DNA of 64,000 bases from Promethearchaeota archaeon Loki_b31 (GTDB taxonomy: Archaea > Asgardarchaeota > Lokiarchaeia > Sigyniarchaeales > SOKP01): the NCBI GenBank assembly GCA_005222975.1, contig NJBI01000010.1, positions 1-64,000 of the forward strand, written 5' to 3'. The position numbers and the translations under genes are program-made. Positions within the stretch are counted from its first letter, which is position 1. Every line of letters starts with the position of its first letter. Shown in pieces: positions 2,811-20,000 of the stretch. The notes below the pieces were generated by a model, which searched no databases, was not told where the DNA came from, and saw only the letters and a program-made list of their open reading frames with translations.

Positions 2811-4724
2811 ATGGAATTAGCAAACTTTTTAGAAATATTAAATAAATTATGGGATTTTGCAAATAATTACACTTCTTATTTTAATAATCCAGCACTATTT
2901 CTTGAGACAATAAAAAGCATGGATAAGTCTTTCCTATTTGAACAACAAGATAATTACAAGTTATATAGTTTATATGATAAAGATAATATGCTTGCTCCTG
3001 TAAATTTTGTCAGGTATATAATATTAAATAAAATTTTGAGTGATAAGGAAATTACAATTGAGATGATTGAAGAATTAAAGGAAAACATTTTACAAAAGAA
3101 TAAAGGCTTTTTTAAAGAATACCCAAATCATCTCCTTGCTTTGGAAAACCTAGTTGTTGAAAAAATCGAAGCGGGAAGAAATAAGAAAGTGAAAGTATTC
3201 CGATCTTATAAAAATAATTTTAGGATTTTATACCAAATCCATTATAACAAATATAAAGAAAAATTCATTTCAGATCTCGAATCTATTGCTACTTTTTTAA
3301 GAAATGATGTATTAAATCTAAAAGAACGTTTAAAGTTTAAAATTGTGTCATTTAGTGGGAGTTCTTATTTAGGACTGCATTATTGTTGGATAGTTCTGTT
3401 TCCAAGTAATATTAGTTCTCATATGAACTCATATCAAATGTTTTTCAGAATAAAACCAGGAGAGAAAGGATTCCCCCCAAAATCAATTCATTATGGTTTA
3501 AGAAAAGGTTCAAATGTTATTGATGAAGAAAATTTTGGGAAATTGCAATTTCAGGAAATTGATAATTTTAATTATGATAATTTCAAGCAAGATTTACAAA
3601 ATATATCAACAAAACTATGGGAAAAGAACCAGAAAGTCAAACTTAAGAAGAGAATGATAGGAACACCCAATAAAGTATCCGATCTAGTAGAGGAAGACGA
3701 GGACATAGAGATTAAGGTCGAAGAAACCGAAGATATTGTGCCGTTAAATCAGATTCTTTATGGACCTCCCGGAACGGGAAAAACTTATAACAGTATTAAT
3801 TTAGCCGTTAAAATTGTTGATCCTGATTTCTTAGGAGAATCAAGAGAAGATCTCCTTAGAAGGTATGGAGAATTAACTGATATCAATCAAATTGGATTTA
3901 TTACCTTTCATCAATCTTATTCATATGAAGATTTTATAGAGGGTTTACGCTACGATGAGGAGAAAGGAATTCCAATCCCCACTGCAGGGGTTTTTCTACT
4001 ATTTATACAGAATGCCAAAAAAAATCCCGAAAAAAAATATGTACTAATTATTGACGAAATAAATAGAGGCAAAATGTCAAAGATTTTTGGAGAATTGATA
4101 ACCTGTATTGAAGAGGATAAAAGATTAGGTGGTGAAAATCAAGTACCTATAACATTACCTTATTCTAAAGAAAAAATTTCAGTTCCCAACAATGTATATA
4201 TCATCGGTACAATGAATTCCACAGATCGGAGTATTGCTTTATTAGATATCGCCCTTAGAAGGAGATTTCAATTTGTCAAACTATATCCCGATCATGAATT
4301 ATTAAAGAAAGAGTTAATTAATAAAGAGTTAGATTCTGGATTTGTAAACAATTTTATTTTTATTTTTAAGATATTAAATGAAAGAATTGAGGTATTACTT
4401 GATAAAGATCATACTATTGGTCATTCTTTCTTCTTAAAAATGAAAAATCCTCGAGATCTTTATAAAATATGGTATAACCAGATAATACCATTATTAGAAG
4501 AATATTTTTATAACGATTGGGAGAAATTACAGCTTTTACTTGGAAAATATAAGAAAGAAGAACAAAAGTTGGGGAAGGGATTTATAAAAACAAAGGACAT
4601 TGACAAAAAATCTCTTTTTGAGGAATTTTTTGAAGATTTTGACCTTTATGAAGTTGAAGATTATGAAGGAATGGAAGATGATTTTATAGAGATATTAGAA
4701 AATACTTTTATCAAAAAAAAATAA
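2811..4724 (+). CDS. mcrB: McrB-family AAA+ GTPase (type IV restriction)
   Basis: GPPGTGKT, TFHQSYSYEDFIEG, IIDEINRG, GTMNSTDRS, ALRRRF, IGHSFF. Confidence 0.92.
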   Translation: MELANFLEILNKLWDFANNYTSYFNNPALFLETIKSMDKSFLFEQQDNYKLYSLYDKDNMLAPVNFVRYIILNKILSDKEITIEMIEELKENILQKNKGFFKEYPNHLLALENLVVEKIEAGRNKKVKVFRSYKNNFRILYQIHYNKYKEKFISDLESIATFLRNDVLNLKERLKFKIVSFSGSSYLGLHYCWIVLFPSNISSHMNSYQMFFRIKPGEKGFPPKSIHYGLRKGSNVIDEENFGKLQFQEIDNFNYDNFKQDLQNISTKLWEKNQKVKLKKRMIGTPNKVSDLVEEDEDIEIKVEETEDIVPLNQILYGPPGTGKTYNSINLAVKIVDPDFLGESREDLLRRYGELTDINQIGFITFHQSYSYEDFIEGLRYDEEKGIPIPTAGVFLLFIQNAKKNPEKKYVLIIDEINRGKMSKIFGELITCIEEDKRLGGENQVPITLPYSKEKISVPNNVYIIGTMNSTDRSIALLDIALRRRFQFVKLYPDHELLKKELINKELDSGFVNNFIFIFKILNERIEVLLDKDHTIGHSFFLKMKNPRDLYKIWYNQIIPLLEEYFYNDWEKLQLLLGKYKKEEQKLGKGFIKTKDIDKKSLFEEFFEDFDLYEVEDYEGMEDDFIEILENTFIKKK

Positions 4725-4788
4725 AATCTGTTTTATTTCTAAATCATTTAAAAATATAAGAAATTATTTAGAATATTAGAAAATTGAA

Positions 4789-6156
4789 ATGTATGTAAAG
4801 GATAAACTAATAACAGTTTTTGAATATGAGAAAGTCCCCTATGATGATCTTGAAGATAAATTAATAGATGTAGATCTTAATAGAATTAAAAATCAGATTG
4901 AGAAGATCAATGTTAGTCTAAAAACCGAAGTTATTACCTTGCGGTGGAATTATTTACAAGCTAAAAATTATGTAGGATTTATAAAACTTAAGAAGTATTC
5001 AATCCAAATAATCCCAAAAATATATCGCATAGATGGGGATTTGGAATTAGAGATTCCTAGAAATGTTAATTTTTTACTTTTCTTATTTCAGTACCTCAAG
5101 AAATCTCTATGGAAAATTAAACAGCATGATTTAGGTACCTTAAGCAGGATGAAGGGAGATATCTTTGAATTTTTTATTTATTTCTTTGCAAACAATCTTA
5201 AGATACTTATTAACCAAGGAATCTATAAGTCTTATATGAAAATAAATGAAAATAATTGCTTTTTAAAAGGTAAATTTCTAATTGATAAACAAATAAAATA
5301 TAATTCCACGAAAAAATGGAAATTTTGTTATGAATATGAAGAGTTTACAGAAGATAATATTTTAAATCAAACATTAAAATATGTTTGCTTTTTACTAAAA
5401 AAACATTCAACAAATTCAAGGTCAGAAAGACTACTCACCGATGTTTTAGCTTTATTAAATGATGTAAAATTAAGGCAAATTCGACCCGCTGATTTTAAAT
5501 TTCTGCACTTTGATAGAATAAATTCGGCGTATAAACCATTTATAGATTTCTGTAAGATATTTATAGAACAATCTAATATTGGATTTAATTATGAGGATTT
5601 TAAAAGTTTTTATTTTTTATTTGATATGAATAAATTATTTGAGGGATTTCTATCAGAATTTATAAATCGCAATAAAGATAAGATTTTTGTTAACAAAATA
5701 CATGATTTAATTGAAATTAGAGGACAGTTAGATTATTATTCAATTGGTAAACTATTTGATAAATTTAAGCTGTATCCTGATTTACATTTGAGATATAATG
5801 AAAAAAATAAAGAGAAATATATTCTCCTCGATTTTAAATATAAAATTTTAGATCCATCTAAGAGAAATTTAAGTTTATCACGTAGTGATTTATTTCAGAT
5901 GTTCACTTATTCGCAATCCCAGGATGAAAAGTATAATAACATTATTCTATTATTTCCTGAAGCAGAATTTATGAAATCTAATATTGATAATTTTTATAGA
6001 CATTCAAAAATTAGTTGTGAAGTAAATCTATTTGTTAAGACTATTAACTTACAGAAGATCTTCTTTTTTGATGAAGCTAAAAATGTAAAATACAATATTA
6101 TCGAATGGCAGAAAAAATTAATTAGTCAACTAAACAAGATTTTAGTTTTAAATTGA
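4789..6156 (+). CDS. mcrC: McrC-family restriction nuclease subunit
   Basis: Follows mcrB; NYVG..IQIIPKI, DNILNQ, FDMNKLFE, YPDL..LLDFKYK..DLFQMFTY. Confidence 0.9.
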   Translation: MYVKDKLITVFEYEKVPYDDLEDKLIDVDLNRIKNQIEKINVSLKTEVITLRWNYLQAKNYVGFIKLKKYSIQIIPKIYRIDGDLELEIPRNVNFLLFLFQYLKKSLWKIKQHDLGTLSRMKGDIFEFFIYFFANNLKILINQGIYKSYMKINENNCFLKGKFLIDKQIKYNSTKKWKFCYEYEEFTEDNILNQTLKYVCFLLKKHSTNSRSERLLTDVLALLNDVKLRQIRPADFKFLHFDRINSAYKPFIDFCKIFIEQSNIGFNYEDFKSFYFLFDMNKLFEGFLSEFINRNKDKIFVNKIHDLIEIRGQLDYYSIGKLFDKFKLYPDLHLRYNEKNKEKYILLDFKYKILDPSKRNLSLSRSDLFQMFTYSQSQDEKYNNIILLFPEAEFMKSNIDNFYRHSKISCEVNLFVKTINLQKIFFFDEAKNVKYNIIEWQKKLISQLNKILVLN

Positions 6157-6523: not shown

Positions 6524-7762
6524 TTATATTAGACTTTTAACTATTGTTTTGATTTTTTTTTTCGATTCTGAATTTTTTAATTGATCCAAAAACAATCTTA
6601 TAAAATTATCTGGAGATTCTTCTTTAAGCGTATATAATTTTCTTAATAAAGCAATATGTTGATAAAGATTATGAAAGAAAACCCTGATTCTCATTTCTCT
6701 AAAATCTGTGCCATGTTGATTTTGGTTAGTTAATTTCTTATCTGCTTCCATACATCTACTTCTTACTTCTGCTATTGAAATATCGTTACAAAAAGGACAA
6801 TTACAAGTAAAATCTTTAAATCTGTCATTATATAATCCTTCATATTTGAACGGATCAGAATAATTGGTAATATTAAGTTCATTATCAAGTAGAGGTATGT
6901 AAACTTGAGATATCCTATCCGTACAAGCTCTTCTCCACGGGGTTGCGACATCACAACTTTCAATTCCATAAAACACCAAGAAGAAAATTTTTTTCCACCC
7001 TCCCAATCCTAAACCGTGACCACGGACTTCCCAATTATGTTTTTCTTTGAAATTAGAAAAAAGTCTTAATATTTCTTTTAATTTTAATACTCCTTGATTA
7101 GCAATACCGGCTATTCCTATATAATCTATTTTATTCGAGTGATTATTATATAATTCTTGTAATTTGGATTTGAAATCGGCAGGATTAATAGCATTTATAG
7201 GAACCATTAATTCGCAATTTTCATGTTTATTTTGAATTGAAATGTCTAATAATTCATTATTCAAATTTTCTTTTGTTTCTAATGATAACTTATTCCACTC
7301 TTCCCTTCCTTTAATCGAAATTTCGTTTCTAGATGAATAACTTGGACCAATATCAAAATTAACATAAATATCTGGTCTCCCATTTTTTATAAATTCAAAA
7401 TATGCTTCAAAATAACATCTATAACTGTTAATCTCATTTACAGGAAGATTATCATTTATAATTTTATTAAAGATTCGATTACCGCCAACATCTAATAGAA
7501 TTTTTAAATTTTGAGCTAGTTTTATGTCAACTGGCGTATATTCGGCAAGGATATCTCTAAGATTTTTTCCTTTATATTTTATTTTATAATTATTAAAGTA
7601 GGGTTTGCTTTTTGGTATAGTAAAACCGAATATAAATGAAGAGAAATTAAATAAAAAGGTATAATGATTTATTTTATTACAAAAATATGATAAATTATTA
7701 AATAGATTGTCATATTCTCCACGACCTGCTGGCCAACCAATTATTGGATAAAAATTAGTCAT
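6524..7762 (-). CDS. TGT/DpdA-like guanine transglycosylase, paralog A
   Basis: TGT-barrel motifs in order: LLDVGG, NFD, GIAG, HGLGLG, ESCDVATPWRRA, Zn site CNCPFC...FFHN. Confidence 0.8.
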   Translation of the reverse strand: MTNFYPIIGWPAGRGEYDNLFNNLSYFCNKINHYTFLFNFSSFIFGFTIPKSKPYFNNYKIKYKGKNLRDILAEYTPVDIKLAQNLKILLDVGGNRIFNKIINDNLPVNEINSYRCYFEAYFEFIKNGRPDIYVNFDIGPSYSSRNEISIKGREEWNKLSLETKENLNNELLDISIQNKHENCELMVPINAINPADFKSKLQELYNNHSNKIDYIGIAGIANQGVLKLKEILRLFSNFKEKHNWEVRGHGLGLGGWKKIFFLVFYGIESCDVATPWRRACTDRISQVYIPLLDNELNITNYSDPFKYEGLYNDRFKDFTCNCPFCNDISIAEVRSRCMEADKKLTNQNQHGTDFREMRIRVFFHNLYQHIALLRKLYTLKEESPDNFIRLFLDQLKNSESKKKIKTIVKSLI

Positions 7763-7879
7763 ATTAAAATCTCTAAGTTTTATCTTAATATAATCTTAAT
7801 ATGATTTACTATTTAAAATTGTTATTAAAAGTAAGCCAAACACGCGAATATAAATAAAAGATATTTTATTGAAATAATT

Positions 7880-8758
7880 ATGGAAGAAAGCATTCATCTA
7901 TATAAAGAACTTTTAGAATTTTGTCGCCCTAGAATTTTAGAATTTTTTAAAAATGTTAATTTGCAAGAAAGACAATTCATAATTGATCGAACTAGTGAAT
8001 TATGTTATGAACACCTATATTTTAAGAATTATAATATTCAAGAAAGACAACAATTCTTTGGTCTTATTCCACATCTTAAAAAAGTATGTAGTGGTTGTTA
8101 TAAATATTATATGAATCCTAGAAATAAATCAAACAAAAAAATGGATGTGATTTTAGGTCAGCAATTTGAATATCTCTTAATTGATTTTTTTAAAGATAAA
8201 AAAGGAATTATTTCTGAAAAAGCAGATAAATCGTATAAAAATTATCCTGATAATCTTGTAAGAGATAGTAGTAATCAAATAGTATGTTATTATGAAGTAA
8301 AATTTTTAACAGCTCCATTTCTTTTAACTTATAAGGTAAGACCCGGGAGAGAATGTTACGAAGGTTCGACAACATTAGATATTGCTAAAAAAATAAAAGC
8401 GCAACGGGAAATCGTTGAGATGTTAGATGAACCAACTTATTATGTATATTGGTTAGATTACCCCTGCCTGAAAGGAATCTTTTATTGGGAAGCAACAAAA
8501 GTCTATCAATATATTGATAAGGTAAAGATTGAATGGGATAGAAAAGAAAGAACTGGAGATTTCAAAAATAATAAAAAGATTTCTGTAACCAAAAAAGTCT
8601 ATTTGCCGTTGCTCGAAATGCATCCTTTTTCATCATTGGTTTGGATCTTTAAAAATCAGGAAATTAGAGCCTCTGAAATAATAGATAAAAGGAAAAAAAC
8701 CCGTTTACAACACAAACAAAAGAAATCAGTTCAAAAGGGATTAAATAGATTTTTCTAA
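7880..8758 (+). CDS. PD-(D/E)xK nuclease, putative restriction endonuclease
   Basis: GQQFE..YPD..YYEVK catalytic pattern; lies among methyltransferases; C-terminal QKGLNRFF. Confidence 0.7.
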   Translation: MEESIHLYKELLEFCRPRILEFFKNVNLQERQFIIDRTSELCYEHLYFKNYNIQERQQFFGLIPHLKKVCSGCYKYYMNPRNKSNKKMDVILGQQFEYLLIDFFKDKKGIISEKADKSYKNYPDNLVRDSSNQIVCYYEVKFLTAPFLLTYKVRPGRECYEGSTTLDIAKKIKAQREIVEMLDEPTYYVYWLDYPCLKGIFYWEATKVYQYIDKVKIEWDRKERTGDFKNNKKISVTKKVYLPLLEMHPFSSLVWIFKNQEIRASEIIDKRKKTRLQHKQKKSVQKGLNRFF

Positions 8759-8885
8759 TTTTAGTTTTTATCTTTTTAGAAATTTTAAAGAGATTCTTGA
8801 TATCTAAATTACATCTTATTTTCAATAATTGGTTGAATAACCAAAATGTTTATTTGAAATCGCTTGAAATAAAATATTGGAAAGC

Positions 8886-9629
8886 TTATTTTAATAATGG
8901 ATAAGAATACCAAAAAATAAATCCTAATTCCATCATATCCATATTTAATGCATTACTCGTTAATTTAAAAAGCTGGATAATTTCATATTCGTTTTTTAAA
9001 TTTACTTCTAAGTCTTTTAATATTTTTTTTATTCTAAATTCAGGTTTAATTGTATTTACTCCTAATTGCATTCGTAAATATTGTATTCCAGCTATTCCAA
9101 ACCCTCTAAAATTGTACTTATTTGGGTTACTTTTAAGAAATTCTTTAATATCAAGATTAACCGCCCAATTATGAATTTCATGAATACTTTCGTCTTCTTC
9201 TAAAAAGAATTTTACAAACTCTTTAAATAATTTCCATCTATTAATATAGGAGAAAGGATGATCTGATTCTAAATATTCTCGTTTTGAGGTTGATCTCAAC
9301 AATTTATAATTATTTAGCTGCGAGAATTCATATAAACTTAATTTTGAAAACTTTTGATAGAATGGAATTAATATGTTTTTTAACATATTTTCATAATTAG
9401 CTCTTAAACTAAATATTGTGTCTACTAATATTAACGCTAAATTACCATTAAATCTTTTTAATGAAAGCCATTTGTTAGTCTCTGTTCTCGCTACTTCTTC
9501 GACTTTCTTCTTTTTACCTGTCCATTCATTGTTAAAGACAATTATATCGTATTCATAAAAGACGATTTTTTCTTCTTTTATATCCTCAACATAGTTGATA
9601 AGTTTTTTTACATCATCCAAGTTTTCCAT
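8886..9629 (-). CDS. Helix-hairpin-helix DNA glycosylase-like protein
   Basis: LVDTIFSLRANY and FRGFGIAGIQYLRMQLGVNTIKPE resemble the HhH-GPD-like 'GIG...YLRM..G...KPD' family. Confidence 0.55.
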   Translation of the reverse strand: MENLDDVKKLINYVEDIKEEKIVFYEYDIIVFNNEWTGKKKKVEEVARTETNKWLSLKRFNGNLALILVDTIFSLRANYENMLKNILIPFYQKFSKLSLYEFSQLNNYKLLRSTSKREYLESDHPFSYINRWKLFKEFVKFFLEEDESIHEIHNWAVNLDIKEFLKSNPNKYNFRGFGIAGIQYLRMQLGVNTIKPEFRIKKILKDLEVNLKNEYEIIQLFKLTSNALNMDMMELGFIFWYSYPLLK

Positions 9630-9641
9630 ACCTTTTTGATA

Positions 9642-11159
9642 TTAAAGAAATTCGTCTAATTTCATTACTTTTTTCCCTTCAGCTTTTAGTCTGTATTTCA
9701 TGATTTCAACATAATTTGGGTTTATTTCATAACCTATCCAATTTCTAAATAATTTATTCGCAACGACTAATGTAGTTCCAGATCCTGCAAATGGATCAAG
9801 AATATAATCACCCTTATTTGTAGACAATAAAATTATCCTTCTTACAAGCTCTTTAGGATAAATTGCGGTATGTCGTATTTTCTTATTTTTAATCATAAGG
9901 GAAACTTCTCTTCCAATATTACCGATTTTACGAAACATTCGCCATATATTAGGTAAATCTTCATTATTTAAATGAATGTAATCAGGAGTATGTAATAACT
10001 TAATCTCTTTATTAAATTTATAATCTGAAGTTTTGGAAAATAACAATATGAATTCATATCGGTCTCCAAGATTTTTTTCGCCATAAGCAGATACTGCTAT
10101 TGGTTTATGCCAAATAATAATATCAAGTAAACTAAAACCAATTTTTTCAATGGTAGTATAGAAATTATAGGGGAATAAAATCATATTTCCTTCTTTCACT
10201 CTTTTGTTAATATTAATCCAAAGTGTACCATTATTTTTTAAAACTCTATAACATTCTTTCCAGACTTTATTTAGCCTATTTAAATACTCAATATAAGGGC
10301 TATTATATCCTATTTGATTAGAATGATCGTAATCTCGCAATCCCCAATAAGGAGGGCTTGTAATGACAGATTGAATAGTATTATCAGGGAGATCGTTCAT
10401 GTTTTCACTAGATTTTATGAAAATATTTGATTTTAAATGATTTTTAATTAATAATGCATGATTTTTGTAATCTATTGATTTTACCAAATTTAATTCGTCT
10501 TTTTGTTCGAGAAAATTGAACTTTAGTTCTACACTAAGAAAATTTTCATTGAAATTATTAATTTTATTAAATTTATCGTGTAAAAACAATATTTTATCGT
10601 CTTTACTTGTAGTAGCTTTAATTATTCGGTCTATTGCTTCAGATTTTTTAAGGATTAAATATTCAATTATTTTTCCTTTACCGTTATCTTTAGTTTTAAG
10701 CCAAAAATTACTAGGATCTTTCCCCTTCTCGTTATATCTGCTTTTTCTTCCTCCTGACCACTCTACATTTTTCCATATATGTTTTTCTCTTATCGGATCT
10801 TTGTTGAATTTATAATTATCTTTTTGTTTTGTTAAAAATATTATATGAGAATATCTGTTTTCAAAATTTACTGAATTATTTTTATAATTAAGATTGTAAT
10901 AAACGATTAGATTTTTTAACACATACCCTAATTCTTTTAAGTTATTGCACAGAATAAAGGGAATAGGTATAAGTTTACTGTTATTAATAATATTGTTTGT
11001 AAAAATCCATAGTGTTCCTTGTTCTTTTAATAAATCTTTACACTTACTATAAATTTTTAAAAGAGGAGGTAAGCTTTTATAACTATTTTCTATTTGAGTA
11101 ATAATTGTTTGAATAGAATTTTGTTCTATTTCACCTAAAATTGAAAGATTATCATTCAT
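9642..11159 (-). CDS. N4-C/N6-A DNA methyltransferase (beta order) with degenerate duplicated N-terminal MTase domain
   Basis: C-half TSPPYW...HTAIYPKEL...DPFAGSGTT; N-half has MTase scaffold (LKEQGTLW, KNLIVY, GKDPSNFW) without SPPY or FxGxG. Confidence 0.9.
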   Translation of the reverse strand: MNDNLSILGEIEQNSIQTIITQIENSYKSLPPLLKIYSKCKDLLKEQGTLWIFTNNIINNSKLIPIPFILCNNLKELGYVLKNLIVYYNLNYKNNSVNFENRYSHIIFLTKQKDNYKFNKDPIREKHIWKNVEWSGGRKSRYNEKGKDPSNFWLKTKDNGKGKIIEYLILKKSEAIDRIIKATTSKDDKILFLHDKFNKINNFNENFLSVELKFNFLEQKDELNLVKSIDYKNHALLIKNHLKSNIFIKSSENMNDLPDNTIQSVITSPPYWGLRDYDHSNQIGYNSPYIEYLNRLNKVWKECYRVLKNNGTLWININKRVKEGNMILFPYNFYTTIEKIGFSLLDIIIWHKPIAVSAYGEKNLGDRYEFILLFSKTSDYKFNKEIKLLHTPDYIHLNNEDLPNIWRMFRKIGNIGREVSLMIKNKKIRHTAIYPKELVRRIILLSTNKGDYILDPFAGSGTTLVVANKLFRNWIGYEINPNYVEIMKYRLKAEGKKVMKLDEFL

Positions 11160-11189
11160 TTTTTACTTAAGTTTATAGATTTTTTTTAT

Positions 11190-12065
11190 TTAAATATCAT
11201 TAAAATTAATTAGTTCAAAGTTAGACGCATTGTATTGTAAGTTATCTAATTCTAGTCTTCTTTTAATCAAATCACGATAATTTGGATTTAACTCTATTCC
11301 AATTGAATGCCTTTTTAAAATTCTGCTTACTCTCATAGTTGTCCCTGAACCAACAAAAGGATCTAGCACGATATCATATTCATTTGTAGTCATCTTTATT
11401 AATCTCTCTATCATTGGATCTGGATATACACAAGGATGATTTATATTGTTTTTTTTTTTTGTCATATTATTAACTCTGTTAAAAAACCAGTGATCCGTAG
11501 GGTTTCTTCCTTCTTTTCCAATTAATCTTTTATCTTTCTTAGTTATAAATGGTATCCTTATATCATCCAAATTGAATATATAATTATTTATATCTTTAAC
11601 AAACCATAAAATGGCTTCCCAGCGACCACTCAATCGTTTTACGCAATTTTGCATGTTATTAAAATGCCATATAATCTTATTTCTTAAAAAATATCCATTT
11701 TCTTTAAAAATAAAATATACAATAGAATCTAATGGTATAATTTCTTTTGTTTTATTGTTTTTTGGGATGGGTGATATATTTATTAAAAAACTTCCATTAT
11801 CTTTTAAAATCCGCTTACTATATTTAGCTGTTTTATTAATAAATTCTTGCCATTTATCTAGATCTAATTTATCTTCATAATATCCGCCATAATCTTTATA
11901 TAATCCATAGGGTGGACTAGTGATAATCGTTTGGATGCTTTTTGATTTAATCAAATTCTGATCTTTTAATGCTTCTATTGCATCCCCAATTATTAATTTA
12001 TGATGAGTCTTTTTTTCGTCGGACACTTTTATTATACTTGTTTGTTTCAATAATTTATCTGTCAT
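11190..12065 (-). CDS. N4-C/N6-A DNA methyltransferase (beta order)
   Basis: TSPPY, RNKIIW, GRNPTDHW, HPCVYP, DPFVGSGTT, GIELN. Confidence 0.93.
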   Translation of the reverse strand: MTDKLLKQTSIIKVSDEKKTHHKLIIGDAIEALKDQNLIKSKSIQTIITSPPYGLYKDYGGYYEDKLDLDKWQEFINKTAKYSKRILKDNGSFLINISPIPKNNKTKEIIPLDSIVYFIFKENGYFLRNKIIWHFNNMQNCVKRLSGRWEAILWFVKDINNYIFNLDDIRIPFITKKDKRLIGKEGRNPTDHWFFNRVNNMTKKKNNINHPCVYPDPMIERLIKMTTNEYDIVLDPFVGSGTTMRVSRILKRHSIGIELNPNYRDLIKRRLELDNLQYNASNFELINFNDI

Positions 12066-12257
12066 TAGTTATTACCATTAATTATTTAATCATTTTATGT
12101 TTTTAATTTTATTATTAACCCTATATAATCACATTTATTTTATTTAAACGAAAAAATTATAGGTATTATGATATATATATCAAAGGATATATTTAAATAT
12201 AACTAGTAGTTACCCGAAAATATATATAATAATTGTAATTGTAATTATATGATCGAG

Positions 12258-12410
12258 ATGGGAAATAAAAAAATTATCAAGCTTCCAGAAGAATTAACAG
12301 ATAGAATAGATAAATTTATTAATCAAAAAGGAAGATCAATAGGGTTAGAAAATAGAACTGAATTAACAAAAAGAGCAATTGATGATTTTTTATCAAAATA
12401 TGAAAATTGA
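12258..12410 (+). CDS. Ribbon-helix-helix (CopG-like) regulator, 50 aa, not in ORF track
   Basis: MGNKKIIKLPEELTDRIDKFINQKGRSIGLENRTELTKRAIDDFLSKYEN* fits the RHH pattern; alternative ATG at 12249. Confidence 0.75.
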   Translation: MGNKKIIKLPEELTDRIDKFINQKGRSIGLENRTELTKRAIDDFLSKYEN

Positions 12411-12593
12411 AGATTTTTTAATTAGACCTACCTAATTCTCTCATCAATTCAAGATTTTGCATTTTTTCGACTTTTTTAAATAATATTTTTATTATTTTTT
12501 CTAAAAAGGAATTATTTTTTCATTAGATGATGAAGATTTTTAAGTATATATTCACTTATAAAATAAATTTATAAATCCATACGGCTAAATAAC

Positions 12594-13988
12594 TTGAGAT
12601 TTAAAACAATAGATAACCAAGAAAAAATTCTTAAAACTCCTTCTTTCTTTATAACTAATAATTTTGGCGGTGGCGGAACAAATGTTTCAAGATTATTCTC
12701 TTATTTAGGGGAATTAAATATAAGAAAAATTAATCTTCTTTTAAATTATTATTATTTAAACACCAATTTAGGCAATAAAATGGTTTTTGATAGAGTTCTA
12801 ATCGATAAATCATTTGAATTTGAGAATATTGAAAATTGGGTGGAATATGTAAGAGGAGTGTATATTGAAACTGAAAAAAAAACCACAAGTAAGATTTCTT
12901 TAAAAAAATTAGAGAATTTGAATTTCTTTTTACTTGATTCAGGTTCGGGTAACATTTTCAGGAATATAATTGAGGATACATCTGATAATATTTTAGATGA
13001 ATATACTAAGATTATTAAAGATTATCATAATTATGCCCATAATTTAAAATTAAATATAATAATTGCGATGGATTTTGCTAAAAAGTACACATATAAGGCA
13101 GGTGAGAAAGGAGATGAGAAGTATGTAAGAATCTCCGATGAATTTGGAGAAGATCTAAATAAAAATCGTCGATTAATAAAATTAACAATAGAAGATCTTC
13201 AGAAGAGAGACTTTTTCACTCCATTAGTCTTTGCTCCGATACATGGAAATTCTCCTAACAATTATTTAAGTTATTTAAAATCTATTATAGAATTTGAAAA
13301 AAAATATGATTTTAAATTTGATGGATTTGCTATAGGTGGAGGTATTGCTAATTCTAAAGGAAAAGACGAGGATATATGGCAATTCCCTAAAAAACTTAAT
13401 AGATTTACTAAAAGTGCATATATTTGTTCGATAGTTACTAAAATGATTTCAGATTTTTTAAAAAACATAAATGATGACCGAACTATACACATTCTTGGTG
13501 CTGGTAATCATTTTAATATATTGCCATTATGGATTTGTGGAGCTGATTCTTATGATTGTCATTCTTCTTGGAGAAGAGCTACAGAAAACAAGATTTTAAT
13601 ACCTCTATTAAATTCCAATGGAAACTATGTTAAAAATAAGAACATATTTCATTTTAAAAAGTTAAGTGAATTAAATGGTTCAGATTTTAACTGTGAGTGT
13701 GAAGTATGTCAAAATTATAATTTAAATAATTTAAAAGAGTTAACAATAAAAAATAAAAGAGAAACACACATTGATAAAGAAAAATATTACTATGGAGAAA
13801 TTCTTGTATTTTTTCATGCAATATATCAATATGAATATTTACTCAATAAATTTAAAGAATTTAAAGATATTGAAACTATACAAAAATTCATTTTGAAAAT
13901 TCCAGATAAAAATTTGCAGAAAAATTATATTGATCTTTTAAAGCATTTGAAAATTACAGAGGGAATAACAAAATTCTTTGGAGCTTAA
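12594..13988 (+). CDS. TGT/DpdA-like guanine transglycosylase, paralog B
   Basis: N-terminal KTP.F, LLDSGSG, AMD, PIHG, GFAIGG, HILGAG, DSYDCHSSWRRA, CECEVC...FFH. Confidence 0.85.
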   Translation: MRFKTIDNQEKILKTPSFFITNNFGGGGTNVSRLFSYLGELNIRKINLLLNYYYLNTNLGNKMVFDRVLIDKSFEFENIENWVEYVRGVYIETEKKTTSKISLKKLENLNFFLLDSGSGNIFRNIIEDTSDNILDEYTKIIKDYHNYAHNLKLNIIIAMDFAKKYTYKAGEKGDEKYVRISDEFGEDLNKNRRLIKLTIEDLQKRDFFTPLVFAPIHGNSPNNYLSYLKSIIEFEKKYDFKFDGFAIGGGIANSKGKDEDIWQFPKKLNRFTKSAYICSIVTKMISDFLKNINDDRTIHILGAGNHFNILPLWICGADSYDCHSSWRRATENKILIPLLNSNGNYVKNKNIFHFKKLSELNGSDFNCECEVCQNYNLNNLKELTIKNKRETHIDKEKYYYGEILVFFHAIYQYEYLLNKFKEFKDIETIQKFILKIPDKNLQKNYIDLLKHLKITEGITKFFGA

Positions 13989-14239
13989 TATATTTTAAAT
14001 ATTATTGCTTTCTTTCATAATTTAACTCTGATGATATTTGCGACTTTTTTGATCATATCTTAGAAGTAGTTTTCACTAAGAAATTAAAAATTATTTCTCA
14101 ATAATTATTGAACCAATTAAGTTTACTTACATCTATAATTTGCCGATTAAATAGATTTAAGAAAGATTTTAGTTTAGTTTTTAAAAAAGAAGTGTAAATT
14201 TTTATAAATGTTAATCAAATTTAATCATTCAATAATTCT

Positions 14240-15397
14240 ATGAATATAAATCACTATTATAAATATGATTTTGAACCAATTTCAAAAAATTTAAGCTCTT
14301 CAGAAATTAAATTATCAGAATTAGAAAACATCCGATATATTGAAAATCCAAAATATTTTCATAAAGAGACAGCATATAAAAAAAAAATAGATGGGAAAAT
14401 TAGTTATTATTATTATTTTTCTAAAATAAAATCAGTAAAAGCTAGCCTTGGAACAAGATATTTAACTCATGGATTAGATTTATATAAGGGGAATTTTCAT
14501 GCACAAATGATTCGGAGTTTGATTAATTATTGTAATCTCCCTCCGAAATCTATTATCCTTGATCCTTTTTGTGGCAGTGGCACTACTTTAATTGAAGCAA
14601 ATCTTCTTGAATTTAATGCAATTGGTATAGATATCAACCCAATCGCATGTTTTAATTCTCATATTAAGACAAAATTACTAGATGTACCATTAGATTTTTT
14701 GATTTCACATAATAAAAAATATTTTGATATAAACTATTATAATAAAAAGAACTTTACGAAATTTAATTTTAATGAAATTTTAAAAATAAATATCAGAGAA
14801 CTTTTTTATTTATTTATATATACACGTGCTATTTCAGATGAGACTTATATTTTAAAAAATAGATTTGAATCCTTTAAAGATAATTATGAAATTATAATTG
14901 ATATTCTTAGAAATTATCAGATATTAAAAAAGCAGTTAAGATTAAGTATAGGAAAGACTAAAATAATGCATGGAGATAATCTTTTTCATTTAAAATTGAT
15001 AAAGAAAAATATTATTGATTGTATTATTACTTCACCTCCTTATTTAGATGTTATAGATTATATATCAAATGATAGAAATCAGATTAAATATTTTATAAAT
15101 GAAAGCGAAATTAACCAATTAAGAAATAAATCATACGAACAAAAATACGAGAGCTATAGGATTACAGAAAAAAAATTTTGGCTAAAGATTGAGAAATTTT
15201 TACAAGAAGCTTTTCGAATTCTAAAATCCAATTCACATTTGATAATAGTTGTAGGTTTTTATAGGAAAATGCATGAAAACTTATCAAGATTAGCAAAAGA
15301 CATAGGTTTTATTATGGAGATGATAATAAAAAGAGAATTTTTCAATTTTAAAGGTAAGAAAAATCATGATTTCATTTTATTTTTTAAAAAAATATGA
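14240..15397 (+). CDS. DNA methyltransferase (alpha order, probably N4-cytosine)
   Basis: THGLDLYKGNFHAQM, DPFCGSGTT, GIDINP precede IITSPPY. Confidence 0.88.
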   Translation: MNINHYYKYDFEPISKNLSSSEIKLSELENIRYIENPKYFHKETAYKKKIDGKISYYYYFSKIKSVKASLGTRYLTHGLDLYKGNFHAQMIRSLINYCNLPPKSIILDPFCGSGTTLIEANLLEFNAIGIDINPIACFNSHIKTKLLDVPLDFLISHNKKYFDINYYNKKNFTKFNFNEILKINIRELFYLFIYTRAISDETYILKNRFESFKDNYEIIIDILRNYQILKKQLRLSIGKTKIMHGDNLFHLKLIKKNIIDCIITSPPYLDVIDYISNDRNQIKYFINESEINQLRNKSYEQKYESYRITEKKFWLKIEKFLQEAFRILKSNSHLIIVVGFYRKMHENLSRLAKDIGFIMEMIIKREFFNFKGKKNHDFILFFKKI

Positions 15398-15852
15398 TAT
15401 ATTTTTTTTATATATTTTAAATACATTTTATATGTTTCAAGAAGAGATGATCGCGAAATAACCGTTATTCTAAGTGTTCCTAGAAACAGGAAATTAAAGC
15501 CAAAACAATCCGAGTGCACTTTCTTTAGCGGGCTATCAAATTGAAAAAATAGGAGTGCAAATGAGAGAGGGTATAGCGGACATGAACACTTTTATTTATT
15601 CAAATAACCATCGAGGTAATTAAATATACCATCTTTAATCCTTAGAAAAGACTGATCGTATACTTTTACTTTTTCAGTTATTTTTAATAAATTCTCTTTT
15701 GAATTAATTTGTTTAATATTGAAGAAATTATGTTTGTAATCGAAAATGATACTCAGGCATTATTCGAAAAACTCAATCAATTAGGTATTAAGGATTATGT
15801 TGATATTAATCGACCAAATGCATGCAAAAAATAACATATCTAAATTTTTAAA

Positions 15853-17198: not shown

Positions 17199-18845
17199 AT
17201 GAATAATTTAGATAATGACAAAAAAAAAGTGGAACAACTCACAAAAATTAGACACGCATATACAAACCTTGTAGATTATTTAAAAGAACTTTTATTTAAA
17301 GAACGCATCCTAGATTCTCCCTCGTACGCAGAACTCTCAAGAAAACTTGGTTTTAAATACAATTGGATCAAGGAAAAAAAGTATTCAATGAATCAAGGAC
17401 ATTTCCCTAAAAAAGAAACTTTTGACGATCTCTATAACCGACTAGCAAACAAGTATATGAGTAAACTTAGTAAATCCTACGAAGCGATCCAGAATAAATT
17501 TAACACTCTCTATACTTTTAGCTTCTCTACGGATAAACAATCGCTTTCAATTTCATCTTCTCAACAAAAGTCTATCAAAAGGGGATTCTTTAATAACATA
17601 AAAGGAATTATAAAGAACCATTTTCCTAACGCTAGAGTTTTTGACACAGACATTTCAAGACTATTCTTTGAGAGAGCAAGAGCATTGAAGGATTCTCATC
17701 TTAAGGGTAATTATAAATATAGAAAACTTGAATTATCAACTCTCTTTAATTTCATATACAAAATAAGAACTGTAACTACTGAAGAATTTGCTAATTTTTT
17801 TACAGATATAATTACTGTAGATGTGGATAATTTACAGATAATTAGATTTGAGGTAGAAAATTTCATTGAAGAATTCATTTTTGCAAATCCGTTTGATGTT
17901 AAATATATTGGCGATTCACATAACAAAGGAACAAGATATTTTAAACCCGAATATGAATTAACATTATCTATTTGGTTTGAAATGTCTAAAGCAAAGAAAA
18001 AGCCAATTCTCCTAAAGAATGCACGAAAACTATTGAAATATCAGACTTTTGGAAGGATTAATAGATTTGGACAACCTGATAGAGGTAAAGTCTATTCTTG
18101 GATAGGTCTTATGAACATGCTTAAAGAATTAGTTAAATTAGTACCTTACAGCTCATATTCTAAAATTTTCAAAGAAGTTTGGGACTATATAAATATACGA
18201 AATCTGTATCTTATTCTACCTAGAGTTTATCATCCAAGTTGGTACACCATCAGCACTATAAAATTTCATATAATTACACTAATAATTCGGGATCTTGGTC
18301 TTGATATTTTAACCTTAGAACCGATCAAATCTGAATCTTTTAAAAAAACTCATAGAATGGATTCATTTACTTACGAAAGACATCATATATTTGTAAACGA
18401 TAAGATGTCCATCGATGTCAACAGATTAGCTCTTGTTATGCATACGAATCATTATAATCTTGAAGGAAAATCAAACTTAGTTCTTGATTTAATTCGAAGA
18501 AGAATCAACTTAACTTTTGATTGCCCTCAATATTACAAGAAAAACATTATTGACTGGAGAGATAAATGGCAACATTATCTACAGAGACGAACTTTCTTAA
18601 TTCAGAATGGAATCGTGAACTTTATCAACGAATATTTCACTGACGATAACGGAAATAACTATATCTTTGAAAAGTTCTTCAGTAACATTCCCAAAGACAA
18701 CATTGAACAAGATATCAAAAATCTCATGCTCGAATGGATCAACAAACACCGACCAGCACCCATCCTAAACTCTCACATCATAACAAAACTCTTCTGCGGT
18801 ACTCCAAATTTAGTTACATCTGGATTTATTCAATATAAATCCTAA
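17199..18845 (+). CDS. Hypothetical protein with N-terminal HTH-like segment and possible HNH-like motif
   Basis: 548-aa ORF; SYAELSRKLG; YERHHI-x8-VNRLALV-x4-H. Confidence 0.5.
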   Translation: MNNLDNDKKKVEQLTKIRHAYTNLVDYLKELLFKERILDSPSYAELSRKLGFKYNWIKEKKYSMNQGHFPKKETFDDLYNRLANKYMSKLSKSYEAIQNKFNTLYTFSFSTDKQSLSISSSQQKSIKRGFFNNIKGIIKNHFPNARVFDTDISRLFFERARALKDSHLKGNYKYRKLELSTLFNFIYKIRTVTTEEFANFFTDIITVDVDNLQIIRFEVENFIEEFIFANPFDVKYIGDSHNKGTRYFKPEYELTLSIWFEMSKAKKKPILLKNARKLLKYQTFGRINRFGQPDRGKVYSWIGLMNMLKELVKLVPYSSYSKIFKEVWDYINIRNLYLILPRVYHPSWYTISTIKFHIITLIIRDLGLDILTLEPIKSESFKKTHRMDSFTYERHHIFVNDKMSIDVNRLALVMHTNHYNLEGKSNLVLDLIRRRINLTFDCPQYYKKNIIDWRDKWQHYLQRRTFLIQNGIVNFINEYFTDDNGNNYIFEKFFSNIPKDNIEQDIKNLMLEWINKHRPAPILNSHIITKLFCGTPNLVTSGFIQYKS

Positions 18846-19381: not shown

Positions 19382-19811
19382 TCAGACTCTGCGCCCCCTG
19401 TGACCGCCTGAGCCGTTTTTAGAGGGAAATCTCTAAAAATTTACGACGGCAGTGATCATGAGACTTTGGGGTGACTTCTTCAATCCTTCCAACTCTTAAT
19501 CCGGAACGTGCCAGTGCACGGATACACGCTTGGGCACCAGGTCCGGGAGTTTGGCTTTTGTTCCCGCCGGGCGCTCTTACTTTGATGTGAACGCCCAAAA
19601 CGCCTTTATCTCTAAGATCGTTAGCCACACGGAAGCCGCACTGCATGGCCGCGTATGGATTCGATTCGTCTCGGTCGGCTTTAACCACCATACCGCCGCT
19701 ACATTTTGCGAACGTTTCACCGCCGCTAAGGTCGGTAGCTGTTACTATCGTGTTGTTATAGCTACTAAAGATGTGAACAATTGCCCACTTAACTTCTTCG
19801 CGTTTACTAAT
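19382..19811 (-). CDS. rps11: 30S ribosomal protein uS11, interrupted by a 31-nt insertion; join(19441..19811,19382..19409)
   Basis: [56 protein letters not shown]|GGHRGRRV*; probable ATT start after GGTGG. Confidence 0.95.
19410..19440 (-). other. Putative BHB-type mRNA intron in rps11
   Basis: Removing 31 nt restores the conserved C-terminus; folds into exon-exon helix, two 3-nt bulges, exon-intron helix and internal hairpin. Confidence 0.65.
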
Positions 19812-20000
19812 TTTAAAACCACCATTTTAATATTTTATTTTATTATAAAGGACTAATTATTTCTAAAATTTGAAGTTTATTATAATTTTAACTAGTTATC
19901 CTAATATCTTCAGCGAATTATGATAGATAAAATGAGGAAATTTGATAGGATAATTAAAAAATTTTTTATTAGATTAAATATCTAATATTCCTTAGAATTA

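Follow-up and report, generated by a model that had tools for sequence, protein, structure and literature searches.

A TGT-fold fourth core gene in mobile type II-like restriction-modification cassettes, present with two alleles in a Lokiarchaeal genome

Why should a restriction-modification (R-M) locus carry two genes of the tRNA-guanine transglycosylase (TGT) fold? The question is raised by a 64,000-nucleotide stretch of DNA (hereafter the window), positions 1 to 64,000 of contig NJBI01000010.1 (our contig C17) in the genome of Promethearchaeota archaeon Loki_b31 (GCA_005222975.1; 3.5 Mb, 92% complete). Two genes, encoding TgtA (window positions 6524..7762, minus strand, 412 aa) and TgtB (12594..13988, plus strand, 464 aa), bracket genes for a nuclease and DNA methyltransferases (MTases). 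The original prediction took the two proteins for a pair that exchanges bases in DNA. All the open reading frames (ORFs) that it named were recovered at the same positions, in a region AT-richer than the genome as a whole (GC content of 0.23-0.26 vs 0.315). We report here that the locus is a mobile type II-like R-M cassette in which a TGT-fold gene is the fourth core gene, and that this copy holds both alleles of that gene.

To define the unit, the surroundings of homologues were fetched, their ORFs were clustered, and loci with enough DNA were counted. Every such locus contained the same core, namely a PD-(D/E)xK nuclease gene, a single gene of the TGT fold and two genes for beta-class SPPY MTases. 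In the window, the core consists of the nuclease (7880..8758, plus strand), MT1 (9642..11159, minus strand), MT2 (11190..12065, minus strand) and TgtA, the resident occupant of the TGT slot. The complete cassette was found in 18 distinct loci outside the window, and the core MTase pair was never lost or replaced among complete loci. Hosts include Methanolobus, Micrarchaeia, Aenigmarchaeota, Woesearchaeota, Iainarchaeota, Bathyarchaeia, Lokiarchaeia-like contigs and Bacteroidota; copies are present in the cultured organisms Bacteroides cellulosilyticus DSM 14838 and Methanolobus psychrotolerans. The cassette is nevertheless rare: genome searches anchored on the nuclease found it in 2 of 151 relatives, 2 of 251 Aenigmarchaeota and 1 of 401 Bacteroidales. 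Each locus found in this way was already known to carry the TGT gene, which is a small test of the nuclease-TGT linkage. The two genes are co-directional, with a gap of -26 to +4 bp, in all 16 loci outside Lokiarchaea (16/16), order flips included, and the MTases of many of these loci are transcribed convergently or apart. No relatives were detected in viral contigs or plasmids, and a phage collection gave two weak unannotated matches only.

We found no description of this cassette among the PADLOC systems or in the literature, including a 2025 restriction-modification review, although literature coverage was incomplete. Within the scope of these searches, the expectation that the locus would match no described system was borne out, the weak matches to the DpdA model being the only Dpd hits among the cassette genes. 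We conclude that this locus represents a genuine R-M variant, so far undescribed, whose fourth core gene is of the TGT fold.

If one TGT gene is the rule, where does the second one come from? None of the 18 other complete loci contains two TGT genes. Profile searches of whole genomes gave one TGT copy in each of eight other hosts and two in this genome; in a ninth host genome, the cross-family profile found no copy. Thus, of the predicted recurrence of a TGT pair with MTases and a nuclease, the association recurs and the pair does not. TgtA and TgtB belong to two deep subfamilies, A and B, which are about 20% identical, and they do not group as sisters in the TGT tree. The nuclease tree requires no fewer than three switches between the A and B labels, and forcing the A-type loci together was rejected by the approximately unbiased (AU) test for the nuclease (p 3e-7) and for MT2 (p 3e-9). 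The A-type core of the window and the B-type locus L066 share 70% protein identity in the nuclease and 82% in MT2, but only 22% in the TGT. L066 and L067 have the same gene order as the window core, with TgtB at the position of TgtA and followed by MT3; locus L004 has the core with TgtA alone. The A and B genes interchange in one slot of the cassette, and TgtB is the second allele of the slot occupied by TgtA.

In the window, this second allele lies on an added 2.9-kb block (12515..15391, plus strand) composed of TgtB and MT3 (14240..15397, plus strand). The block shows 92.3% nucleotide identity to L066, whereas the core reaches just 73-76% identity to L066, L004 and L056. Homology to the A-type relatives stops at a small ribbon-helix-helix (RHH)-like regulator gene (12249..12410, plus strand), and the contig of a related strain tracks the window up to this stop (12416) and then diverges. 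The difference in identity, together with the divergence of the strain at the RHH gene, indicates that the twin arrangement is a mosaic, made of an A-type cassette and a recently shared B-type TgtB+MT3 block. An RHH-then-TGT gene order was also seen in L009. No contig of four sequencing runs spans the RHH-TgtB junction, so an assembly chimera at this point remains conceivable. The additional allele would be either redundant or a variant caught partway through a replacement. We are highly confident in the four-gene architecture and in the mosaic origin of this copy.

These results bear directly on the proposal that A and B form an obligate heterodimer, or act as one paralog per strand, and so define a twin-TGT system. 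Both genes are intact in one locus, and QTRT1/QTRT2 offer a precedent for such a complex (PMC8136771). However, a single TGT per locus and per genome elsewhere, the presence of B in A's slot in L066/L067, the non-sister relationship and the recent separate origin of the TgtB block all speak against it, and the catalytic aspartates are kept in both proteins, unlike in a catalytic/accessory pair. We consider this part of the original prediction very improbable.

We then asked whether the two proteins are true members of the TGT superfamily. Both passed the cut-off of the Pfam TGT family PF01702 (E 2.8e-6 for TgtA and 1.5e-11 for TgtB), and they match each other at 26% identity (E 3e-19; profile probability 99.95). 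A PDB sequence search with the single proteins gave no match. AlphaFold models of both had a pLDDT of about 91.5, and their top structure matches were TGT-superfamily chains only. For the TgtB model, Z scores were 28.6 with archaeosine TGT (arcTGT), 24.4 with bacterial TGT, 21.0 with Cap10 and 20.4 with DpdA; for TgtA, they were 22.6 with bacterial TGT, 22.2 with arcTGT and 19.2 with DpdA. Five representatives of the superfamily (arcTGT, bacterial TGT, QTRT2, Cap10 and DpdA) scored 17.7-28.6, and unrelated barrels at most 14.5. The models thus indicate that TgtA and TgtB are genuine superfamily members with a (beta/alpha)8 barrel.

The catalytic residues are also in place. The acid/base aspartate is D91 in the motif DVGG of TgtA and D115 in DSGSG of TgtB, the nucleophile is D271 and D321, respectively, each followed by WRRA, and the Watson-Crick aspartate is D137 and D160. 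Across the families, the acid/base and nucleophile aspartates are invariant in 27/27 A and 94/94 B sequences, and the Watson-Crick position is D in 94/94 B sequences and D or E in all A sequences. DpdA needs these three aspartates for displacement of guanine via a covalent intermediate (PMC10164549). The zinc site CxCxxC..H is formed by C320/322/325 and H364 in TgtA and by C367/369/372 and H408 in TgtB; about a third of B-family members have lost it. In many of the Bacteroidota B-type members (L024-L028), this loss was observed together with DN instead of DS at the first aspartate. Judging from the sequences, the TGT-fold enzyme of the cassette is apparently active. The presence of two TGT-fold genes with these motifs and without a PUA tail was confirmed by Pfam, the models and the alignment.

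Could these proteins be tRNA enzymes? Their identity to bacterial TGT, arcTGT and QTRT1/2 is 13-19%, and they are shorter than arcTGT (412 and 464 vs 577 aa). The C-terminal PUA domain gave no match in either protein; beyond the zinc site, both models close with helices. With hidden Markov models (HMMs) of the tRNA TGT families, TgtB scored 30 bits against a cut-off of 306.75 (Tgt) and 25 against 350 (TgtA model); with the DpdA HMM, TgtA scored 20.1 bits against a cut-off of 200, and TgtB had no match. The PADLOC DpdA model gave a weak match in 36/94 B-family members (best E 3.5e-10). About 30 homologues of TgtA (44-70% identity) and about 108 of TgtB (27-90%) were found, almost all of them unnamed. 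When bacterial TGT, arcTGT and DpdA were included in a phylogeny, A and B grouped in a single clade of their own (support 99/97), apart from the DpdA sequences; the tree contained nine bacterial-type and Lokiarchaeal DpdA sequences, without phage DpdA1-4 and Cap10. The housekeeping arcTGT of the host is encoded on contig C75, separate from the cassette, and the prediction that TgtA and TgtB are not housekeeping tRNA TGTs holds. A DpdA-like family distinct from A and B was observed in six genomes of the host's family (loci L046-L051; genomes G013, G018, G028, G035, G047 and G569). Its members have N, not S or T, after the nucleophile aspartate, and two of the six hosts have no QueC/QueD matches.

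A role on tRNA, or as a non-DNA sensor or effector in the manner of Cap10 (abortive infection, or a guard of the R-M system), would agree with structure scores to tRNA TGTs that equal or exceed those to DpdA, and Cap10 of type IV CBASS is itself a TGT fold repurposed in defence (10.1101/2025.04.06.647259). Against it stand the missing PUA domain, the absence of a QueC-like partner or CD-NTase from every locus, and a link, without exception, to DNA methyltransferases and to a fold of DNA nucleases; such a role seems improbable.

Does the cassette then insert a 7-deazaguanine into host DNA, as DpdA does? The base-stacking aromatic residue is Tyr106 in TGT and Phe99 in DpdA (PMC3660597, PMC10164549). 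The corresponding position in the sequence alignment is N95 in TgtA and G119 in TgtB, and it is Asn or Gly across the whole A+B clade, so that the pocket differs from that of every characterised inserter. The pocket keeps the aspartate that reads the guanine edge; subfamily A is also altered at the Ser and Gln/His positions, with V92/N190 in TgtA vs S116/H217 in TgtB. We discarded His217 of TgtB as a possible signature of DpdA, as Lokiarchaeal arcTGTs carry His there too.

We also looked at the supply of preQ0 in the hosts, bearing in mind that calls of gene absence rest on incomplete genomes. The lack of queCDE in the window extends to the whole host genome for queC and queD, which are absent; queE and folE were not searched. 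In the host genus, QueC is a fusion of roughly 520 aa encoded beside queD (L082:1975-4128, G024), and queC and queD co-occur in the same 24 of 41 genus genomes. With the cluster of a relative as the query, the host showed a clean deletion at the syntenic site, the flanking genes being about 70 bp apart on contig C77 (G000:C77:38628-38699); it keeps arcTGT despite this deletion. In the 99%-complete genome of a second Lokiarchaeal host, queC survives as a 75-aa remnant and queD is frameshifted. QueC and QueD are both missing from three DPANN hosts, as is any housekeeping TGT. In Aenigmarchaeota, the phylum of two of these hosts, QueC was found in 7 of 151 genomes and a housekeeping TGT in 26 of 151. 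The salvage transporter YhhQ was not found in five hosts. Many archaea retain arcTGT without QueC.

The loss of queC and queD in the host and their absence from several others weaken the idea of self-marking with host preQ0, as originally predicted. According to this idea, the TGT would place preQ0, made or salvaged, in host DNA beside methylation, and the nuclease would cut unmarked DNA. In its favor, the characterised DNA-acting TGT-fold enzymes all insert 7-deazaguanines (PMC10164549, 10.1101/2023.04.13.536721), some hosts carry QueC and QueD, over a third of B members match the PADLOC DpdA model weakly, DpdC-like DUF6884 genes neighbour the cassette in L006 and L016, and TgtB ends in a PIP-like motif. 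However, both Lokiarchaeal hosts have lost queC/queD, and the DPANN hosts lack them along with any tRNA TGT. In no locus does the TGT stand in for the two intact MTases, and its coupling is to the nuclease and not to them. Moreover, the clade stands apart from DpdA (20 vs 200 bits), and the PIP-like tail of TgtB is missing from its 90%-identical relative P0032. We regard self-marking as unlikely.

The partners of the TGT offer further clues. The nuclease (P123-D124...E139-x-K141) belongs to an unnamed family of about 43 cluster representatives at E < 1e-30, in which the PD...EVK motif (PD...ExK) is invariant and several basic motifs are conserved; it had no Pfam, PDB or PADLOC match. Its C-terminus, QKGLNRFF (8732-8758), resembles a PIP box and is conserved in the Lokiarchaeal-type homologues L004, L056 and L066. 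Other PIP-box-like C-termini were seen at 9642-9670 and, as the TgtB tail, at 13960-13988. A lone nuclease homologue of about 40% identity lies on a 7-kb contig. In L056 (22-1889), a cassette of the Lokiarchaeal type, two nuclease paralogs lie in tandem, and several conserved basic motifs are altered in the second one. A TgtB-type gene opens the separate contig L068 from the same sample, which is possibly the piece adjoining L056.

With motif order read as in PMC2890505, MT1 and MT2 are beta-order and MT3 is alpha-order. All three carry TSPPY, which is found in both core MTases of the cassettes. MT1 has an extra, degenerate N-terminal MTase-like domain, and MT2 is at least 50% identical across all cassettes. 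The linked MTases have intact motifs IV and I and stand with a PD-(D/E)xK nuclease, as in a type II R-M system. MT3 is an accessory and not part of the core; its family has 67 close homologues, some labelled Lokiarchaeota, and it accompanies TgtB in L066. K-mer depletion across 19 cassettes revealed only a mild general avoidance of palindromes.

What could a TGT-fold enzyme do in such a system? The coupling to the nuclease, the MTases that are never lost and the altered pocket favor a function on the attacking side, one for which no special base is required. On balance, and with modest confidence, it is probable that the TGT fold has been turned to the restriction side without a 7-deazaguanine supply, either as a guanine DNA glycosylase that methylation blocks and that works with the nuclease, or as an eraser that turns viral preQ0 back into guanine, with two interchangeable alleles that differ in base preference. 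We tentatively propose the first form, guanine excision at unmethylated sites that helps the nuclease break foreign DNA, and judge its probability to fall a little short of even. MT1 and MT2 would between them methylate both strands of a single target site in host DNA, and from their SPPY motif we take the product to be probably N4-methylcytosine. Where incoming DNA carries such a site without methylation, the TGT-fold enzyme would flip out a guanine and run the first half of the TGT reaction, in which the nucleophile aspartate would displace the guanine; the result would be a covalent adduct, or an abasic site once this adduct is hydrolysed. The coupled nuclease would cut at or opposite the lesion to give a double-strand break, an HhH-GPD-fold protein might serve as an optional apurinic/apyrimidinic (AP)-lyase, and a supply of 7-deazaguanine would be unnecessary. 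Base excision blocked by methylation is a known restriction strategy of the R.PabI family (PMC7806768).

The second form is an ordinary R-M system with a TGT that swaps viral preQ0 for host guanine, or binds preQ0, so that the nuclease cuts. A and B would cover different modified bases, and carrying both would be useful. Such an eraser does not need host preQ0, and it would suit the tight coupling to the nuclease and the differing pocket positions of interchangeable alleles. On tRNA, human TGT is able to replace preQ0 by guanine, but the reaction does not extend to preQ1, queuine or other 7-substituted bases (PMC8136771). Restriction enzymes are blocked by the 7-deazaguanines of phages (10.1101/2023.04.13.536721; PMC5567051). 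A general de-modifier would, however, be expected with many R-M families, whereas every locus with context has one type of nuclease and MTase pair, and the twin state was found once. Guanine excision is ranked above the removal of viral preQ0 because the TGT is tied to a single nuclease/MTase family, the pattern that a target site common to all of them would predict, and we consider the eraser rather unlikely.

Several observations weigh against guanine excision. We know of no TGT-family enzyme that hydrolyses its own intermediate as a normal reaction. The A and B TGTs are about 20% identical and yet are paired with 70%-identical nucleases, so a shared sequence specificity is an assumption. 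In the Lokiarchaeal versions, the nuclease and TGT genes are divergent, head-to-head and not co-transcribed (TgtA and the nuclease are separated by a gap of 117 bp). Two Bacteroidota hosts do carry QueC and QueD, and another route may supply salvaged preQ0 where arcTGT is retained in the absence of QueC/QueD. The DUF6884/YaaA genes near the cassette in L006 and L016 recall DpdC. Finally, distant nuclease homologues of 30-34% identity stand beside type III R-M genes without a TGT, which indicates that the wider family is R-M-associated and able to work with other partners. These homologues (L059:8001-8825, L061:8001-8861, L063:8001-8855 and L064:6948-7757) directly follow Mod-Res or Mod and SNF2 helicase genes in Vibrio, the Bacillus cereus group and Thiomicrorhabdus, and form an accessory nuclease that carries no annotation in these type III R-M loci.

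How does the cassette compare with known systems? Functionally, it would come closest to a type II R-M system supplemented by a putative base-flipping enzyme. With type II systems that have paired beta-class MTases (MboII/DpnII-like; folds M.RsrI, M.MboIIA and M.PvuII), it shares the two MTases, the PD-(D/E)xK nuclease, often a small regulator and the low-GC mobile island; it differs in its obligate TGT-fold gene and its unnamed nuclease family. PabI-type enzymes excise adenine. R.PabI/HALFPIPE restriction glycosylases (PMC7806768) would share with the cassette the methylation-blocked base excision and cleavage at an abasic site that we propose here, but their fold is unrelated and they need no dedicated PD-(D/E)xK partner. 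DpdA (PDB 7UI4; NCBIfam NF041059; PMC10164549) resembles the A and B proteins in its TGT barrel, zinc subdomain, three aspartates, lack of a PUA domain, Leu at the Leu236 position and setting in a mobile DNA-defence cluster. A+B is nevertheless a separate clade without a Phe99 equivalent, and the cassette always has two MTases and one small nuclease, without DpdB or Dpd helicases, and many of its hosts are unable to make preQ0. Searches for dpdB, dpdC and dpdD-K among the cassette genes gave no Dpd matches except the weak ones to DpdA. The tRNA enzymes bacterial TGT, arcTGT and QTRT1/2 (PDB 3UNT, 1IQ8, 6FV5) share the fold and the catalytic aspartates, but the A+B clade is patchy and mobile, has lost the Tyr106 equivalent and has a unique WRR after the nucleophile. 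Genes of the TGT fold or related to deazaguanine were also recruited to defence in type IV CBASS with Cap10 (PDB 9NTN), BRC (PMC12839542) and BRIGADE (PMC12458937); the cassette lacks the Cap9/CD-NTase of CBASS, the PglZ/BrxC/HerA of BRC, and the YprA helicases and deazaguanine synthesis cluster of BRIGADE.

The remaining genes of the locus are accessory. Apart from the regulator, the predicted nuclease, HhH-like gene, beta-class MTases, third MTase and upstream McrBC were all verified. The glycosylase/AP-lyase-like protein (8886..9629, minus strand, 247 aa) has an HhH-GPD-like fold (TM about 0.7) and is found only in Lokiarchaeal-type cassettes; a 240-aa gene beside the Bathyarchaeia cassette was ruled out as its homologue by BLAST. 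The RHH gene, which is divergent from the MTase operon, is conserved in relatives, but its family assignment is weak (E 0.033). In the Bacteroidota loci L024-L028, a helix-turn-helix controller-like gene and a conserved 133-142-aa gene of an unnamed family precede the cassette. An EVE-domain gene (L018:11390-11818) and a GIY-YIG-like gene (L008:13011-13445) each lie directly beside a single cassette.

McrB and McrC (2811..6156, plus strand) form a separate defence system upstream and show no conservation beside the cassette in other loci. Positions 1-1424 contain a HerA-like ATPase gene, with a second copy on contig C10 (91.5% nucleotide identity). An exact match of abundant contigs begins at position 15503 in all four runs, with other sequence on its left, and this position is likely the right edge of a variable island. 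Further downstream, a 548-aa ORF (17199-18845, plus strand) with His-rich motifs in its C-terminal half had no Pfam, NCBIfam or PADLOC match. The sole genome copy of rps11 (19419-19832, minus strand) does not end in the usual basic tail of the RR-GGRRGRR type. The atypical end falls where the low-GC region starts, and possibly reflects integration into the 3' end of the gene or an assembly join. Promoter and repeat scans gave results at chance level.

To the cassette family, the window adds a natural allele swap, a genome with both A and B, and a clean host queC/queD deletion. An obligate TGT clade with its catalytic residues kept, in hosts without preQ0 synthesis, points to a new restriction chemistry. 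If true, guanine excision or the removal of a protective viral base would add a new front to the arms race over hypermodified phage DNA, and could provide a sequence-specific tool for base editing or mapping.

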